64,000 nt of DNA from an uncultured bacterium (GCA_903839725.1 CAIMDG010000003.1:31829-95828), one strand, 5' to 3'; positions 2,055-53,546 are shown, numbered from the stretch's first letter. Made by a program: numbers and translations. Notes: generated by a model from the sequence alone, not told the origin.

Positions 2055-3068
2055 ATGTCGATTCAAGAACATATTTCTTTGGCCCAATACACTACTTTCA
2101 AAATAGGTGGTAAAGCTCGATTTTTTTGTTCTGTACACTCTGAAGATGAGCTTGTTGAAGCTGTTCGTTTTGCTCAAGAAAAGTCATTACGTATATTGGT
2201 TATAGGTGGAGGATCAAATATGCTCATATCTGATAAAGGATTTGATGGTTTGGTTATCAGGATGAATATAAAGGGAATCGTCTCAAGTGGAGAACAGTTA
2301 ACTATAGGAGCAGGTGAAGTGTGGGATGATCTAGTCGCGTACACCGTTGATGCTGGCATATATGGATTTGAAAATCTTTCAGCGATTCCTGGAACTGTTG
2401 GTGCGGCACCTGTACAAAATATCGGTGCATATGGCGTCGAAACATCCCGACTCATAGTCTCAGTTCGTGCACTCGATACTCAGACTTTGAAATGTGTTGA
2501 ATTGTCGAATAGTGAATGTACGTTCGGGTATCGTGATAGTTTGTTCAAACATCAAAAGGGGCGTTATATCATTACGAGTGTTACATTTTTTGCCTATAAA
2601 GTTGGTCAGGTACATATTGAATATAAAGATTTGAAAGAGTATTTTAAAAAAGAAATTGAACATAAAGTCACACTCAGTGTGTCTCAGGTTCGTAATGCAG
2701 TAATTTCTATTCGTGCTGCAAAATTGCCTGATTGGAAACAGTGGGGGACTGCGGGTTCATTTTTTAAGAATCCAATTGTTTCTCAAAAAAAGTTTGAAGA
2801 TTTGAAAAAGACGTATCCTGATTTACCTCATTTTGTTGAGCCAGATAATAACGTCAAAATTCCACTAGGTTGGATATTAGATAAAATATGTAACATGAAA
2901 GGTCTGAAACATGGTCGCGTCCGAGTATACGAAAAACAGGCATTAGTCCTCGTAAGTGAGCCAGGTGCAACTGCGGACGAAGTTACAAGTCTCGCACGTA
3001 TACTTATGGATTGTGTTAAAGAAAAAACTGGTATTGAGATTGAGGGTGAAGTGGAATGGGTTAATTAG
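2055..3068 (+). CDS. murB: UDP-N-acetylenolpyruvoylglucosamine reductase
   Basis: FAD-binding N-terminus (KIGGKARFF...LVIGGGSNML), a MurB C-terminal domain, 337 aa. Confidence 0.85.
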   Translation: MSIQEHISLAQYTTFKIGGKARFFCSVHSEDELVEAVRFAQEKSLRILVIGGGSNMLISDKGFDGLVIRMNIKGIVSSGEQLTIGAGEVWDDLVAYTVDAGIYGFENLSAIPGTVGAAPVQNIGAYGVETSRLIVSVRALDTQTLKCVELSNSECTFGYRDSLFKHQKGRYIITSVTFFAYKVGQVHIEYKDLKEYFKKEIEHKVTLSVSQVRNAVISIRAAKLPDWKQWGTAGSFFKNPIVSQKKFEDLKKTYPDLPHFVEPDNNVKIPLGWILDKICNMKGLKHGRVRVYEKQALVLVSEPGATADEVTSLARILMDCVKEKTGIEIEGEVEWVN

Positions 3069-3096
3069 TAAATATGTGATATAGTAGGCCGTACAT

Positions 3097-5688
3097 ATGG
3101 CATTTTTAGATATATTAAAGGGGGGTTCACATACCCAGAATGTAAAGAAATTCCAGCCATTGGTTGGCAAAATTAATGCACTTGAATCAGGTATTAAGGC
3201 TCTTTCTGATATAGAATTAAAGGCAAAAACAGCTGAATTCAAGCAACGACTCGCGAATAAAGAGACTATCAATGATCTTTTACCAGAGGCATTTGCTGTT
3301 GTTCGTGAAGCTTCTAAAAGAACACTAGGACAAAGACATTTTGATGTACAACTTATCGGAGGTATGGTTTTGAATGCTGGAGGTATTGCTGAAATGAGAA
3401 CAGGTGAAGGTAAAACATTGGTTGCAACACTTCCTGCATATTTGAATGCACTTTCTGGTAAAGGTGTTCACGTTGTCACAGTTAACGATTACCTCTCGAG
3501 ACGTGATGCGGTATGGATGGGTCAGATATATGATTTCCTCGGACTTTCAGTTGGTGTAATCGGTAGCGAATCAAGTTTCTTATATGATCCTAAACACAAG
3601 TCTGATGTCACCCCGTCGAAGGACGGGGTCCAGAAGAAAGAACAGGATACATCGTCCGTGACTCTGGATTCCGGCCTCCGCCGGAATGACAAGCAAGAGA
3701 GTGGTTCCGACCCTCTCGACAAAGAACGCGATCAACTTGGTTCATTCAAAGTTGTTCATGAATTCCTACGTCCTGTTCCAAGAAGTGAATCATACAGAGC
3801 TGATATTACCTATGGAACAAATAATGAATTTGGTTTTGATTATCTCCGTGACAACCTTGAATACAGTCCTGATCGTTTGCGTCAACGTGAGCCAAATTAT
3901 GCAATAGTCGACGAAATCGATTCTATTTTGATTGATGAAGCACGTACACCACTTATTATTTCTGCACCAACTCGTAATGCTGAGAATATATACAAACAGT
4001 TTGCTTCTTTGGTTACCGCATTCAAGAAAGATGAGGATTATACAGTTGATGAAAAACACAAATCTATTTCTCTGACTGCAGACGGTATTACCAAGGCTGA
4101 GAAAGAGCTCAATATAGAAAATATCTATACAGACAAAGGCATCAAGTATGTGCACCATTTGGAGACTGCAATCAAAGCTCGTGCCATATATACCAAAGAC
4201 AAAGAATACGTCGTTAAAAATAATGAAATTGTTATTGTTGATGAATTCACCGGACGCCTCCAGCCTGGCCGTCGTTGGTCAGATGGTTTGCACCAAGCAA
4301 TTGAGGCCAAAGAAGGTGTGAATATTCAACAAGAATCACGCACATACGCATCTATTACATTCCAGAACTTTTTTCGTATGTATCCCAAGATGGGAGGTAT
4401 GACTGGTACCGCATCAACGTCAGCTGAAGAGTTTTATAAAGTGTATGGTCTCGAAGTTTATATTGTCCCTACAAATAAATCTGCAGTTCGTATTGATTCC
4501 AATGATCAGATTTTCCGTACGGAAATGGGTAAATTCAAGGCATTGGCGCGTAAGGTCAAAGAATTACACGCAAAAGGTCAACCAGTATTGATTGGTACAG
4601 TTTCTATTGAAAGAAATGAAGTGTTGTCAGCATTTTTGAAAGCTGAGGGCATTCCTCATGAAATTTTGAATGCCAAGAATCATGAACGTGAAGGAGAGAT
4701 TATTGCTCAGGCGGGCAAGAAGGGGGCAGTTACTATTGCTACCAACATGGCAGGACGTGGAGTGGATATCAAACTTGGAGGTAACCCAAACACTCCAGAA
4801 TCTGCTGAAGAGATCAAGAAAGCAGGAGGTTTGTTTGTGATGGGTACTGAACGTCATGAAGCGCGTCGTATCGACAATCAACTTCGTGGTCGTTCGGGTC
4901 GCCAAGGTGATCCAGGCGAGACCCAATTCTTCGTATCACTGGAAGATTCTCTTATGCGTGTATTTGCTTCAGATATGTTGAAGTCTATGATTGGCAAGCT
5001 TGGTATGGCTGAAGACGAAGCAATCGAACATAAACTTATTTCACGTTCTATTGAGAGTGCTCAACAAAAGATCGAAGGATTCAACTTTGATGCCCGTAAG
5101 CATGTCCTTGAATTTGATGACGTTATCAATCATCAACGTTCTTCAGTGTACAAGAATCGCCGTATGCTTCTCCTTGGTTCACTCGAACAAGTTGAAAATT
5201 ATTTACGTGAAATACTCACTGGGGATACTGATGCACTCGCCATGGTTGAAAAGAAAATTGCTGAACATGGTCGTGAAGCTTTCATTTCAGCTGTTCGCAT
5301 TATTTTGCTTCAAGCTATTGATATGTTTTGGGTTGAACACCTCGAGGTTATGGATTATACCCGCTCAAGTGTTAATCTCCGCGCCTACGGTCAACGAGAT
5401 CCATTGGTTGAATACAAGAAAGAAGGCCTTCGTCTATTCAAGGAAATGCAGTTCGCTATGAAGGAGCAAGTTGTTCGCATGATTCCTCATGTGGTACCTA
5501 CCAATAATGGTAAGCCTGTTCAAGCCCCTGAAGAAATGAAAGAAATTCAAACAAATGCACAAGAAATTTCAGGTGGTGATGGTTCAGCAACTCCTACAAA
5601 AAAGAAAGAAGGTGAAGTCGGCAGGAATGATCTCTGTCCTTGTGGAAGCGGTAAAAAGTACAAGAAGTGTCACGGAGCGGGGAAGTAG
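3097..5688 (+). CDS. secA: Preprotein translocase ATPase SecA, with an unusual ~65-aa insertion in NBD1
   Basis: DEAD-like motor motifs (MRTGEGKTLVATLPAYLNAL, ADITYGTNNEFGFDYLRDN, VDEIDSILIDEARTPLIIS) and a C-terminal zinc finger CPCGSGKKYKKCHG. Confidence 0.95.
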   Translation: MAFLDILKGGSHTQNVKKFQPLVGKINALESGIKALSDIELKAKTAEFKQRLANKETINDLLPEAFAVVREASKRTLGQRHFDVQLIGGMVLNAGGIAEMRTGEGKTLVATLPAYLNALSGKGVHVVTVNDYLSRRDAVWMGQIYDFLGLSVGVIGSESSFLYDPKHKSDVTPSKDGVQKKEQDTSSVTLDSGLRRNDKQESGSDPLDKERDQLGSFKVVHEFLRPVPRSESYRADITYGTNNEFGFDYLRDNLEYSPDRLRQREPNYAIVDEIDSILIDEARTPLIISAPTRNAENIYKQFASLVTAFKKDEDYTVDEKHKSISLTADGITKAEKELNIENIYTDKGIKYVHHLETAIKARAIYTKDKEYVVKNNEIVIVDEFTGRLQPGRRWSDGLHQAIEAKEGVNIQQESRTYASITFQNFFRMYPKMGGMTGTASTSAEEFYKVYGLEVYIVPTNKSAVRIDSNDQIFRTEMGKFKALARKVKELHAKGQPVLIGTVSIERNEVLSAFLKAEGIPHEILNAKNHEREGEIIAQAGKKGAVTIATNMAGRGVDIKLGGNPNTPESAEEIKKAGGLFVMGTERHEARRIDNQLRGRSGRQGDPGETQFFVSLEDSLMRVFASDMLKSMIGKLGMAEDEAIEHKLISRSIESAQQKIEGFNFDARKHVLEFDDVINHQRSSVYKNRRMLLLGSLEQVENYLREILTGDTDALAMVEKKIAEHGREAFISAVRIILLQAIDMFWVEHLEVMDYTRSSVNLRAYGQRDPLVEYKKEGLRLFKEMQFAMKEQVVRMIPHVVPTNNGKPVQAPEEMKEIQTNAQEISGGDGSATPTKKKEGEVGRNDLCPCGSGKKYKKCHGAGK
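3565..3790 (+). other. In-frame insertion in secA relative to canonical SecA (between LGLSVGV and YRADITYGTNNEF); its core 3606-3722 is GC-rich and forms two 8-bp GC hairpins
   Basis: ACCCCGTC-GAAG-GACGGGGT (3610-3629) and ATTCCGGC-CTCC-GCCGGAAT (3668-3687). E. coli and B. subtilis SecA have only ~11 aa at this position (recalled from memory). Confidence 0.55.
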
Positions 5689-33877: not shown

Positions 33878-33885
33878 ATATGCTG

Positions 33886-34200
33886 TCGTATAGACAACTG
33901 CGTTCATCTTCGGATGAATGAGGAAAGTCCGAACACCGGCAAAATTTATTTTGCAGAAGGGTAGCGGGTAATTCCCGTCTGGGCAATCCACGAGGTGCGA
34001 ACAGTGACGCCTAAGTCGAAAGGCAAAGGCTCCGTCGCAAGACGGATGAATCTCATGGCAACATGAGGGTGCAACGGCTAAATCCTTACTTCGGTGCAAG
34101 ATCGTGCTCATCGCAAGATGAGAGAATCGCTTGAGGTGTGTGGTAACGCACATCCTAGATAAATGGTTGTCTTCAACAGAATTCGGCTTATGTACGACGA
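33886..34200 (+). ncRNA. rnpB: RNase P RNA (bacterial type A, compact)
   Basis: The universally conserved P4 strands are present: GAGGAAAGTCCG (33920-33931) and ACAGAATTCGGCTTAT (34176-34191). P1 pairing GTCGTAT...ATGTACGAC. Preceded by a promoter and followed by a terminator. The antisense track ORF 33842..34153 is an artefact. Confidence 0.85.
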
Positions 34201-34204
34201 CATG

Positions 34205-34236
34205 TTAACACCCCGCGATGAGCGGGGTGTTTTCTG
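34205..34236 (+). terminator. Rho-independent terminator after rnpB
   Basis: ACACCCCGC-GATGA-GCGGGGTGT followed by TTTCT. Confidence 0.65.
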
Positions 34237-38095: not shown

Positions 38096-38479
38096 ATGAA
38101 ATACGGCAACCGTCCTCTATGGCAACGAATAGTACGATCACCACTTATGATGATTGTTGCAATTGTATTGTTTGTCATTCTTGCGAAGGCTGCATGGAAT
38201 ATTCATGAAAAGGCGGCATTGAGTGGTGCACGTTTGGAACAGGCTCATAATGAATTGTTGAAGTTACAAGCTCGACAACAGGATCTTTCGGGTAAAGTTG
38301 CTTTCCTATCGACTGATCAAGGTGTTGAATCAGAGCTCCGTACTAAGTATTTGGCTGTGAAAGACGATGAATCAGTTGCAGTTATTACGGATCCAGATGT
38401 TAGTACGACGAGTACAAGTACTCCTGTAGTTATGCAGGAAGGTTGGTTTACGAGATTCTTGCACGCGCTGGGTCTGTAG
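38096..38479 (+). CDS. FtsB/DivIC-like septum formation initiator (N-terminal TM plus coiled coil)
   Basis: TM helix followed by a leucine-zipper-like coiled coil (LEQAHNELLKLQARQQDL) and the DivIC-family tail motif ELRTKYLAVKDDESVAV. Confidence 0.5.
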   Translation: MKYGNRPLWQRIVRSPLMMIVAIVLFVILAKAAWNIHEKAALSGARLEQAHNELLKLQARQQDLSGKVAFLSTDQGVESELRTKYLAVKDDESVAVITDPDVSTTSTSTPVVMQEGWFTRFLHALGL

Positions 38480-38614
38480 AGGTAAGATATGAGAAAATTT
38501 TGGTCTCGATGTGGGTCTGAAGTACGTTAGAATGTAGAAAAATTCTGGTCTCGATTTAGCTTTGGCTACGCCAAAGCTAAATCTCGATCCGAATTTTCTT
38601 AGGAGAGAAAATTC
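38470..38614 (+). promoter_or_regulatory. tRNA leader module copy 1: tandem ~42-nt repeat each ending AAAATT(T/C)TGGTCTCGAT, a 13-bp hairpin (loop TAC), CTCGATCCGAATTTT, then AAATTC immediately 5' of tRNA-Gly
   Basis: Read directly. The same ordered modules recur upstream of tRNA-Thr at 53321-53429. Confidence 0.6.
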
Positions 38615-38685
38615 GCGGGTGTGGTTTAGTGGCAGGACGCGACCTTCCCAAGGTTGAGGCCCGAGTTCGATTCTCGGCACCCGCA
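38615..38685 (+). tRNA. tRNA-Gly (anticodon CCC)
   Basis: Cloverleaf by hand. Acceptor GCGGGTG/CACCCGC, anticodon stem CGACC/GGTTG with loop TTCCCAA, T-arm CCGAG-TTCGATT-CTCGG, discriminator A. CCA is not encoded. Confidence 0.9.
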
Positions 38686-38862
38686 CAATGATCCGTAAGG
38701 ACTGCTAAACGCAGTCCGAGCGGAGCATCATTGCGACGAGGTGCCGAGAATCGAACGCCGGAACGTGCGAGCTCTAGCAAGAGCGAGCCGTGAGGCGGTG
38801 CCCAGACCGAGCCGAACTGGTGAGGCGAGAGTCGCGGGCGATTCTCGGCACCCGCACACAAA
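38686..38862. repeat. GC-rich ~150-bp segment carrying an inverted copy (38730-38746) and a direct 20-nt copy (38843-38862, CGATTCTCGGCACCCGCACA) of the tRNA-Gly T-arm/3' end. It looks like an att site or integration/excision scar, or a tRNA-derived MITE
   Basis: Read directly. GC ~60% against a ~38% background. The antisense track ORFs 38372..38686 and 38577..38873 are artefacts. Confidence 0.5.
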
Positions 38863-38863
38863 A

Positions 38864-38893
38864 AGAAAGGCATAAGCCTTTCTTTTTTGTGCT
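38864..38893. terminator. Bidirectional terminator (perfect 11-bp stem AAAAGAAAGGC-ATAA-GCCTTTCTTTT)
   Basis: Lies between the tRNA region and the convergent nrdH-like gene. Confidence 0.7.
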
Positions 38894-52890: not shown

Positions 52891-53268
52891 ATGTATACAC
52901 TTATTACATTATTCTATCTCTCATTCTTGATCATGATCGTCATGGTTTGGAACAAGAGGCGTGAGCTACACACGGGTCATCCGAGCATGGCCTCTCGTTT
53001 GGGTGTAAAAACGGATCATATATTTCAGAAGGCGCATGTCACTACCAAGAAGGGACTTTCATATATTAATAAACATACATTCATTGCCTTGGCGCAATGG
53101 ATGGCTTTTCATGTACTTGTACGTGTGCGAAAAGTATATGTTCAGCTCAAGCACCACTTCATATCAAACCCACATGGTAAACGTATGATCGATGCAGTAC
53201 GTGGTCGTGGGGAAATAAAGAAACATGGTGCATCTTTCTATTTGAGAAGGATTTCAGGAGAAAAGTAG
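52891..53268 (+). CDS. Hypothetical small membrane protein
   Basis: ORF with an N-terminal TM helix and a basic remainder. Confidence 0.3.
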   Translation: MYTLITLFYLSFLIMIVMVWNKRRELHTGHPSMASRLGVKTDHIFQKAHVTTKKGLSYINKHTFIALAQWMAFHVLVRVRKVYVQLKHHFISNPHGKRMIDAVRGRGEIKKHGASFYLRRISGEK

Positions 53269-53320
53269 GAAGGAGGTTGCTGATATTGTGAAAATAAGTT
53301 AATCTAGGGAGCAGTAGAAA

Positions 53321-53429
53321 TAGGGAAAATCTGGTCTCGCTTTCCCTGGGAGAGGAAATTCTGGTCTCGTCTTCATCATTGCTTACGCAATAATGAAGAC
53401 TCGATCCGAATTTCGCAAAGCCGAAATTC
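53321..53429 (+). promoter_or_regulatory. tRNA leader module copy 2: GGGAAAATCTGGTCTCG, GAGGAAATTCTGGTCTCG, a 14-bp hairpin (loop TTAC), TCGATCCGAATTTC, then GAAATTC immediately 5' of tRNA-Thr
   Basis: Same order and spacing as the module upstream of tRNA-Gly. Confidence 0.6.
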
Positions 53430-53502
53430 GCCACCTTAGCTCAGTTGGTAGAGCAACGCTTTTGTAAAGCGAAGGTCCCCAGTTCAAGTCTGGGAGGTGG
53501 CT
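53430..53502 (+). tRNA. tRNA-Thr (anticodon TGT)
   Basis: Cloverleaf by hand. Acceptor GCCACCT/AGGTGGC, D-arm GCTC-AGTTGGTA-GAGC, anticodon loop TTTGTAA, T-arm CCCAG-TTCAAGT-CTGGG, discriminator T. Confidence 0.9.
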
Positions 53503-53546
53503 CAGAAACAAATACTTTTAAGTAGCCCGTATGTTAAAATGGCTAC

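Follow-up and report, generated by a model that had tools for sequence, protein, structure and literature searches.

A lineage-specific two-hairpin module, probably a transcribed leader, flush with the 5′ ends of unrelated tRNA genes and of tmRNA genes in CPR bacteria

The 5′ leaders of bacterial tRNAs are normally regarded as disposable, unconserved spacers. Structured RNAs can be linked to tRNAs or tRNA-like elements, as in MALAT1-mascRNA, which ends via RNase P, in plant tRNA-snoRNA and MHV68 tRNA-miRNA, which end via RNase Z, and in E. coli 3′ETS-leuZ. Small palindromic repeats include REP/BIME, pneumococcal BOX, the Neisseria Correia elements and the Rickettsia palindromic elements, and two-hairpin cis-acting leader RNAs are known from phage HK022 (put) and from rRNA leaders (boxB/boxA). 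Among eukaryotic retrotransposons, Ty3 and Dictyostelium TRE5-A target tRNA genes. Finally, in T-box leaders, which lie upstream of aaRS or amino-acid genes, the specifier and T-box sequences pair with the cognate tRNA.

Here we describe a module that occurs twice in a 64,000-nt stretch of DNA from an uncultured bacterium (the window), upstream of a tRNA-Gly and a tRNA-Thr gene. The first-pass annotation of the window had reported that the same ordered elements precede both genes, and we found all four elements in place at both. Two places in the window match the composite motif TGGTCTCG-N25-35-CTCGATCCGAATTT, against 0/100 shuffles, which rules out a chance origin, and the other three matches to TGGTCTCG in the window lie within coding sequence and lack the partner elements. 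The features of the two loci, together with the RNase P RNA gene of the window, are:

38459-38488, + strand: putative promoter of the tRNA-Gly unit, with TTGCAC (38459-38464), an 18-nt spacer and TAAGAT (38483-38488)
38494-38538, + strand: decayed upstream unit of the Gly locus (the ‘first box’ of the first-pass annotation), AAAATTTTGGTCTCG followed by a degenerate remainder
38539-38545, + strand: 5′ flank of the Gly module, AAAAUUC, the 5′ strand of the alternative helix P0
38546-38590, + strand: P1 rod of the Gly module, U-GGUC-UCG-(14-bp hairpin, loop UAC)-CUC-GAUC-C
38591-38614, + strand: P2 hairpin of the Gly module, GAAUUUUCUU-AGGA-GAGAAAAUUC, its last base being position -1
38615-38686, + strand: tRNA-Gly(ccc), identified by ARAGORN and Rfam, with no encoded CCA
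53277-53305, + strand: putative promoter of the tRNA-Thr unit, with TTGCTG (53277-53282), a 17-nt spacer and TAATCT (53300-53305)
53324-53354, + strand: decayed upstream mini-unit of the Thr locus (likewise a ‘first box’), GGAAAAUCUGGUCUCG followed by a short hairpin, without P1
53355-53361, + strand: 5′ flank of the Thr module, GAAAUUC, the 5′ strand of P0
53362-53407, + strand: P1 rod of the Thr module, U-GGUC-UCG-(13-bp hairpin, loop UUAC)-CUC-GAUC-C
53408-53429, + strand: P2 hairpin of the Thr module, GAAUUUCG-CAAAGC-CGAAAUUC, its last base being position -1
53430-53503, + strand: tRNA-Thr(tgt), anticodon UGU, identified by ARAGORN and Rfam, with no encoded CCA
33882-34205, + strand: RNase P RNA (rnpB), reduced type A with P15-P17 collapsed (Rfam RF00010, 107.5 bits, and alignment)

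The unit is a cassette of ~70 nt that reads, from the 5′ flank through P1 and P2 to the tRNA, (R)AAAUUC / U-GGUC-NNN-(variable stem, small UU(A)C-type loop)-N'N'N'-GAUC-C / GAAUUU-NN-loop-N'N'-AAAUUC / tRNA +1. It comprises two hairpins with a single unpaired C between them: P1, a rod of ~20 bp with a variable interior and often one bulged base on the 3′ strand (predicted fold -24.1 kcal/mol at the Gly locus and -19.3 kcal/mol at the Thr locus), and P2, an 8–10-bp hairpin terminating at -1. The variable 13–14-bp hairpin noted at first is thus real but forms merely the upper part of P1, the base of which is GGUC/GAUC; its loop is UAC at the Gly locus and UUAC at the Thr locus. The third and fourth elements, in contrast, are not separate, since GAAUUU(Y) pairs with (R)AAAUUC as the two strands of P2, which ends at -1. 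GAAUUU also has an alternative partner in the 5′ flank, with which it would form helix P0 and lengthen the P1 rod. At the Gly locus the repeat scan found a perfect 10-nt inverted repeat (38590-38599/38606-38615) whose final base is tRNA G+1, and the linker C38590 is able to pair with tRNA G38615. The repeat scan also gave 28-nt inverted repeats surrounding the variable hairpin, at the Thr locus 53355-53382/53387-53414, where the MFE fold of the leader uses P0 and P1.

The boxes are repeated at both loci, as claimed, but their spacing is 45 rather than ~42 at the Gly locus and 30 at the Thr locus, and just 21–26 nt are still alike: the repeat scan matched the upstream unit to the module as a direct repeat of 26 nt (81% identity) at the former and of 21 nt (86% identity) at the latter. 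The boxes are not paired sites belonging to a single signal: the upstream one is left over from a tandem unit that has decayed, and the Thr mini-unit is missing from the orthologous locus L070. A recent segmental duplication, the refuting scenario named in the first-pass annotation, was rejected because similarity ends at the module cores: the cores are 89–100% identical, whereas the flanks, the P1 interior and the distal P2 are 33–58% identical, the background level for the scoring used. The sequence upstream of rnpB carries no copy of the module. The reading of the module as a structured leader that is conserved, specific to a lineage and common to unrelated tRNA genes is supported.

Scans of public genomes and metagenomes yielded 39 distinct module sequences in CPR contigs. 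An exact-pattern scan of one genome per species gave eight true loci in six assemblies, labelled Candidatus Paceibacterota (three), Saccharibacteria (one) and ‘uncultured bacterium’ (two), and six more matches that are GC-rich, have neither hairpin nor tRNA and are chance hits (by our own estimate, ~3.5 were expected). A looser pattern applied to metagenomes, in which the P1 base triplet and the interiors of P1 and P2 were freed, gave 31 true loci and 13 chance matches. Several copies are present per genome, and five assemblies are identical across the Gly locus.

All 42 instances are in the sense orientation, and among them there are no antisense copies and none away from a tRNA/tmRNA junction or another unit. 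The module directly adjoins +1 of an ARAGORN tRNA or tmRNA in 30/42 instances; in the remaining 12 it is followed by a tandem next unit (n=1, L001), a 2-nt GC spacer (n=3; L007, L013, L051), a pseudo-5′ tRNA fragment (n=4; L031, L037, L041, L058), an intron-bearing tRNA (n=1, L035), the end of the contig (n=2; L029, L045) or a tRNA-Lys-like fragment (n=1, L026). The tRNA genes downstream represent 12 anticodons: Gly(ccc, tcc), Thr(tgt, ggt), Val(tac, gac), Trp, Ile(gat), Lys(ttt, ctt), Ala(tgc) and Leu(gag). Three tmRNA genes also follow a module (L012, L030, L043), and at one of them (L030) the Rfam tmRNA start coincides with the module end. The AAAUUC/G junction is invariant in the copies collected.

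The module is not a general feature of tRNA genes. Some 25 neighbouring tRNA genes in the same CPR loci lack it, including Tyr, Gln, His, Arg, Met, Asp, Phe, Pro, some Leu/Ile and the second genes of operons, and at most orthologous loci it is absent or decayed. Most module-less genes have a -10-like hexamer ending 8–12 nt before +1, so their transcripts would be almost leaderless. A role restricted to tRNAs that share a transcript with an upstream gene was rejected, because the orientation of the neighbour is alike in both groups (co-oriented for 19/27 module-bearing and 13/21 module-less genes, with eight module-bearing genes facing a divergent ORF). No 3′-trailer partner and no difference in encoded CCA was seen for module-bearing tRNAs.

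Because GGUC/GAUC and GAAUUU/AAAUUC were held constant in the scan patterns, evidence of pairing can come only from the remaining positions. Just inside the fixed part of P2, position 7 is U-A in 16 and C-G in 21 copies (37/39 paired), and position 8 is C-G in 13 and G-C in 23 (36/39). The P1 base triplet falls into the classes UCG/CUC (with two Y.Y mismatches), GAA/UUC and AAA/UUU, and is GGA/UCC in L070. A covariance model was built from six gap-free copies and aligned to the 39 sense matches. In this alignment, which is fitted to the model, 93.8% of cells are paired versus 77.6% in shuffles, and both-sided changes occur in 16/27 pairs (173 cells versus 49). Slid registers collapse, with covariation scores of at most 0.092 versus 0.418, and sense matches score far higher under the model than antisense ones. 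P2 and the P1 base exist in just three to four sequence classes and so represent few independent compensatory events. The P1 base contains an invariant G.U, and the junction bases and P1 apex are conserved while the stem is variable; almost all conserved bases are paired, and the loops differ in both sequence and length, with no evident pseudoknot partner. As judged from these alignments, the module is a real, covariation-supported element. G.U pairs at free P1/P2 positions are rare (4 versus 11 A.C, most C.A cells being one recurrent apex mismatch), and for this reason constraint at the RNA level is not proven against constraint on a DNA hairpin.

Orthologous loci were fetched by synteny, independently of the module, using the FtsB-like ORF at 38096-38476 as the anchor for the Gly locus and the ORF at 52891-53265 for the Thr locus. 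The Gly loci are:

Window and L027: module intact; flanks of L027 ~95% identical at the nucleotide level
L063 (anchor identity 84%): unrelated GC-rich leader
L064 (anchor identity 79%): module decayed (20 bits; fold z = 0.2)
L066 (anchor identity 68%): nothing
L065 (anchor identity 65%): P2 remnant only, against a pseudo-5′ fragment
L067 and L068 (anchor identity 53% and 50%): conserved -10 (TAAGAT and TAATTT) 14 and 8 nt from +1

The -10 hexamer that follows the ORF stop (TAAGAT/TAATAT/TACTAT/TAATTT) is kept in 7/7 fetched orthologous Gly loci that have the tRNA, both with and without the module, and in the window TAAGAT directly follows the stop of the FtsB-like ORF (38477-38479). Its retention directly after the ORF stop in all Gly loci therefore identifies it as the probable tRNA promoter, and because the module sits between this conserved -10 and +1, it appears to be transcribed and to have been inserted into an ancestrally short leader. 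At the Thr locus, L070 (anchor 82%) has the module intact behind TTGCTC-17-TAATCT, the counterpart of the putative window promoter in the same place after the upstream ORF; L071 and L072 have no module. Both putative window promoters score below the threshold of the consensus promoter scan. With the module absent, decayed or replaced in 6/6 synteny-sampled Gly loci and 2/3 Thr loci, the sampled sequences portray it as lineage-restricted and evolutionarily labile.

P0 and P2 are predicted to be near-isoenergetic (median ddG 0.7 kcal/mol), with P0 favoured in 17/39 copies and several copies unable to form P0 or forming it poorly. The 5′ flank RRRRUUC is conserved although it was a free position in the scans, and 85–100% of P0 cells can pair with GAAUUU (33 of them as G.U). 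P0 covariation is not significant in the 39-copy set, where one pair is informative (G-C 16, A-U 7, G-U 8, other 7). In L070, which was found independently of the module, a core U-A has changed to C-G, and the change is matched in both possible partners (flank GGAAUUC, 5′ strand GAAUUCCG, 3′ strand CGGAAUUC); its module folds at -38.2 kcal/mol (z = -6.9). This double-partner change fits both helices, and could also have arisen if the flank is a unit end copied there by conversion. The core substitutions of L064 were discarded as covariation evidence, that copy being decayed.

To our knowledge, no factor other than RNase P acts on the 5′ ends of tRNA and tmRNA alike. The module lies immediately 5′ of the mature +1, and the genome has an RNase P RNA, whose collapsed P15–P17 fits both the lack of encoded CCA and the reduced RNase P RNAs reported for CPR (PMC8172020). 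Among the possibilities raised by the first-pass annotation, covariation, abutment to the RNase P site and the place downstream of the promoter favour a small structured leader RNA or processing signal. The module very probably belongs to the precursor and is removed at AAAUUC/G: RNA polymerase would read through it on the way from the promoter to +1, and RNase P would then cut it off. We further propose, tentatively, that alternative pairings of this excised leader gate the cleavage site. Pairing of C-GAAUUU downstream would form P2 and bury positions -1 to -8 and, via the linker C, G+1. Pairing upstream with RAAAUUC would instead form P0, extend P1 and leave ~15 nt of single-stranded leader before +1, so that the toggle between P0 and P2 would set how easily RNase P reaches the cleavage site.

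The analysis shows the anatomy of the module, its covariation, its confinement to the 5′ ends of RNase P substrates, its place downstream of a conserved promoter and its gains and losses. We infer transcription of the module and RNase P cleavage at the junction from its position; the gating role would follow by pure inference. A helix reaching -1 should hinder cleavage by bacterial RNase P, and such a helix would fit a gate and a merely tolerated insert equally well. The tRNA-proximal unit alone stays intact while upstream units decay, which argues for a role in cis. Selection on pairing is suggested by the comparison of the window with L027, in which the core, P2 and the tRNA are unchanged and the four changes in P1 are two compensatory pairs. 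The loss of the module is tolerated at given synteny-sampled loci and the module is thus dispensable there. Across the loci compared, the cassette behaves as a repeat family that is inserted into ancestrally short leaders, tandemly duplicated, exchanged and lost by decay. A bolder version, that the module is a new class of element confined to the RNase P site, (self-)copied to -1/+1 junctions, with the P0/P2 toggle and capture of G+1 timing the maturation of a subset of tRNAs and tmRNA, we regard as doubtful.

The main alternative, possible but in our estimate unlikely, is that the cassette is a selfish, non-autonomous palindromic insert with no host function, which is selected or repaired as a DNA hairpin and finds a safe harbour in leaders that RNase P trims away. 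The short leaders of outgroup loci mark the module as an insertion, and presence, decay and replacement are all seen at orthologous loci; L001 carries an intact, identical tandem pair of units, L027 has an extra 46-nt decayed unit in its Gly leader, and unit-sized indels separate ~95%-identical genomes. Between the Thr loci of the window and L038 (flanks 95–97% identical), the P1 interior and distal P2 have been replaced wholesale by a variant that is also carried by Trp, tmRNA and Val loci in other contigs (L001, L012, L051), a sign that copies undergo gene conversion. The near-perfect Watson-Crick stems with no excess of G.U and the several copies per genome also speak for an insert. The REP/PATE/MITE-like traits found are an imperfect palindrome with a conserved foot, multiple copies, and filled, empty and decayed sites; dispersal to extragenic places in both orientations was not among them, as 42/42 copies are sense and lie at a tRNA/tmRNA 5′ end or another unit. 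Against a selfish insert, there is no known mobility mechanism that targets the -1/+1 junction of different tRNAs and tmRNA, and comparison with module-less loci revealed no target-site duplication and no AAATTC in the empty sites. Among the copies collected, none sits antisense or elsewhere between genes, though hairpin repeats are normally tolerated in 3′ regions. The viral contigs scanned contain no copies, which also led us to reject a phage origin. Weaker evidence, from partial genomes, is that no recurrent transposase-like family lies within 4 kb of 40 modules and that an approximate query found no IS200-type TnpA in ~400 kb.

It is less probable still that the module is a small RNA gene hitch-hiking on tRNA genes, with the leader itself as the product, for example a protein-binding RNA that would owe its transcription to the tRNA gene and its 3′ end, flush with P2, to the RNase P cut. 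Exact abutment means that a released RNA would end in a terminal hairpin; any RNase P substrate would serve, tRNAs and tmRNA alike, and precedents exist in MALAT1/mascRNA, plant tRNA-snoRNA genes and E. coli 3′ETS-leuZ. Redundant copies would explain why individual loci can lose the module and why the copies evolve in concert, the decaying upstream units are those without an RNase P site, and conserved junction bases and P1 apex on a varying stem would also suit a product RNA. However, among the copies collected none stands alone with its own terminator, and the neighbours of 40 modules include no linked partner protein gene: no recurrent non-housekeeping family, transposase or other, was found near them. 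The family is patchy even among close relatives, and P1 offers neither a conserved stretch that is single-stranded or target-like nor complementarity to the tRNA it precedes.

A DNA-level signal, that is, the lineage-specific promoter or transcription-factor site for tRNA genes that was the first option of the original annotation, is highly improbable. The repeated AAATTCTGGTC boxes with the inverted copy GATCCGAATTT, and the upstream partial box that runs into a TGnTAnnnT-like extended -10 in L008, L015 and L044, would suit it. However, a consensus scan found no sigma-70 -35/-10 inside the module, the spacing between the elements and +1 changes with the length of P2, and it is upstream of the module that the conserved -10 hexamers are found. 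In the same genomes, most tRNA genes rely on an ordinary -10 next to +1, and a site bound as duplex DNA would give a variable 20-bp stem no reason to covary. Least probable of all is a self-cleaving ribozyme that makes the tRNA 5′ end, for which one might cite the tandem units with identical junction sequences and the invariant G.U at the P1 base, but which is at odds with the lack of any Rfam ribozyme match at E<=10, with conserved bases that are nearly all paired, variable loops and no apparent pseudoknot partner, and with the presence of an RNase P RNA.

What we describe is a conserved, covarying structure whose end matches, to the nucleotide, the RNase P site of tRNA and tmRNA genes. Its hosts are tiny-genome CPR/Paceibacteria in which RNase P RNAs are reduced and the other tRNA genes are nearly leaderless. 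Should the proposed gating hold, the module would be the first cis-regulator dedicated to the 5′ maturation of tRNA and would offer a handle on how CPR bacteria balance their tRNA supply. If it is selfish, it would represent a new safe-harbour strategy, inside a segment removed by a universal ribozyme. In either case, its covariance model can improve the annotation of CPR genomes.

The module is apparently previously undescribed. Rfam 15 gave no match at gathering score for the window loci, searches at E<=10 or E<=1 with both window loci and four other copies returned only chance miRNA-hairpin look-alikes, and a known RNA family was rejected because no Rfam family matches any module class. No description was found in the literature searched, where GAUCCGAAUUU as a search string retrieves only animal miR-10, a coincidence. 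By eye, UCCGAA in the module resembles the P4 strand of the window rnpB, and the module cores resemble a T-loop; both resemblances are short and not conserved across module classes.

Several known systems were considered and set aside. An intrinsic terminator or attenuator was rejected since the module has no terminator-like site, P1 being followed by CUCGAUCC and P2 by the tRNA. A T-box leader was rejected since there is no RF00230 match and the module lies before the tRNA genes themselves. Complementarity between module and tRNA is not cognate-specific (-15.2 versus -15.5 kcal/mol), and sensing of the cognate tRNA by P1 or the P2 loop was rejected on this ground. In TIGR arrays (TIGR-Tas), many 36-nt units carrying box C/D motifs and split spacers are strung together beside a Nop-domain Tas gene (PMC12045711). 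The module differs in its ~70-nt units, present in one or two copies, its self-complementary interiors and the absence of a recurrent neighbouring protein family.

The closest systems each share some of its features. Ordinary pre-tRNA and pre-tmRNA leaders occupy the same position and end exactly at the RNase P site, in a genome that likewise encodes RNase P RNA, but they are short, unconserved and largely unstructured near -1, whereas the module is a conserved ~70-nt element with a helix to -1 and is confined to a subset of genes. The tRNA-linked RNAs resemble it in joining a structured RNA directly, with no spacer, to a tRNA(-like) element, from which a tRNA-processing enzyme would release it with a precise end; the module differs in being bacterial, multi-copy, on the 5′ side and attached to genuine tRNA genes rather than mimics, and any product RNA or function is hypothetical here. 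Like the palindromic repeats, it forms a family of short hairpins that recur within a genome as modular or tandem units, shows presence/absence polymorphism and decay, and has a reduced genome as host; those repeats are scattered through intergenic or coding sequence, often in both orientations, whereas the module is found in sense only at -1/+1, with no cognate transposase seen. The put and boxB/boxA leaders share adjacent stem-loops with about one unpaired base between them, a transcribed leader, and a variable stem with kept structure, but act on RNA polymerase for terminator read-through in long operons, whereas the module precedes a 75-nt tRNA and is registered to the processing site. With Ty3 and TRE5-A it has in common insertions confined to just upstream of tRNA genes as a safe harbour; these elements are autonomous, targeted by Pol III factors and inserted tens of bases upstream, outside the precursor, whereas the module is non-coding and flush with +1. 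In position the module matches ordinary RNase P leaders, in logic the tRNA-linked RNAs and in behaviour the palindromic repeats, and it lacks at least one defining feature of each.

In most tRNA genes that lack the two-hairpin module (upstream regions of the fetched CPR loci L003, L006, L007, L013, L028, L035, L067 and L068; all coordinates given with L handles are locus-internal), a -10-like hexamer ends just 8-12 nt before +1, and, as read from sequence, their transcripts would begin at the mature 5′ end or a few bases from it. Such predicted starts suggest low RNase P dependence for many tRNAs of these CPR organisms. Immediately 5′ of the true gene, pseudo-5′ tRNA fragments were observed in L072 (2967-3037, in tandem), L058, L031, L041, L006, L025, L037, L065 and L066, each consisting of tRNA nucleotides 1-12 followed by GTYTTGGTAG(N)AATGCA. 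Roughly 10 nt from +1, the mutated D-arm (TGgTAGAAT) amounts to an extended -10 box, so these fragments appear to be promoters derived from a duplicated tRNA 5′ end. At four loci it is the pseudo-5′ fragment, not the real tRNA gene, that the module adjoins.

An additional GC dinucleotide separates AAATTC from the tRNA start (GC|GCGCG...) in three copies, probably through slippage within the GC repeat:

L007, 972-973: extra GC between module and tRNA
L013, 1249-1250: extra GC between module and tRNA
L051, 271-272: extra GC between module and tRNA

The rule that the module lies flush with the tRNA start is therefore strong, not absolute. At L063, the orthologous Gly locus, a GC-rich leader of ~75 nt (3385-3458, GCGGGCctGCCCGC..GCGATAGCGAAGCG) occupies the place of the module and is similar to GC-rich blocks 3′ of other CPR tRNAs.

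In the window, a GC-rich block of ~170 nt lies immediately downstream of tRNA-Gly (38687-38889), has no Rfam match and contains the following elements:

38687-38733: hairpin
38740-38756: inverted copy of the tRNA-Gly T-arm/acceptor 3′ strand
38840-38858: direct copy of the tRNA-Gly 3′ end (first copy, 38669-38687)
38860-38889: clean terminator, the last element of the block

Among the fetched loci, 9 of 56 CPR tRNAs have their own 3′ end repeated directly 60-155 nt downstream, both with and without a 5′ module. The block with its 3′-end copy looks like either a second insertion family, unrelated to the module, or an att-like duplication.

Two other tRNA 3′ trailers (L051, 122-197; L034, 5540-5614) open with AAATTTTGGTY.TTGCAAAATYTGCG, a P2-like hairpin with UGGUC inside the loop, which the covariance model of the module matches weakly on the opposite strand. 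Separately, tRNA-Thr(ggt) is split at the anticodon-loop region in L035 (~2896-3150) and L041 (~1673-2070) by an insert, estimated at about 190 nt in L035, that is possibly a group I intron; ARAGORN made no call for either interrupted gene.

The RNase P RNA of the window (33882-34205) scores 107.5 bits, barely over the Rfam threshold of 100. Only a 20-nt hairpin remains of its P15-P17 region; the L15 GGU loop, which in RNase P RNA binds the tRNA 3′-CCA, therefore seems to be absent. This apparent loss agrees with tRNA genes that do not encode CCA.
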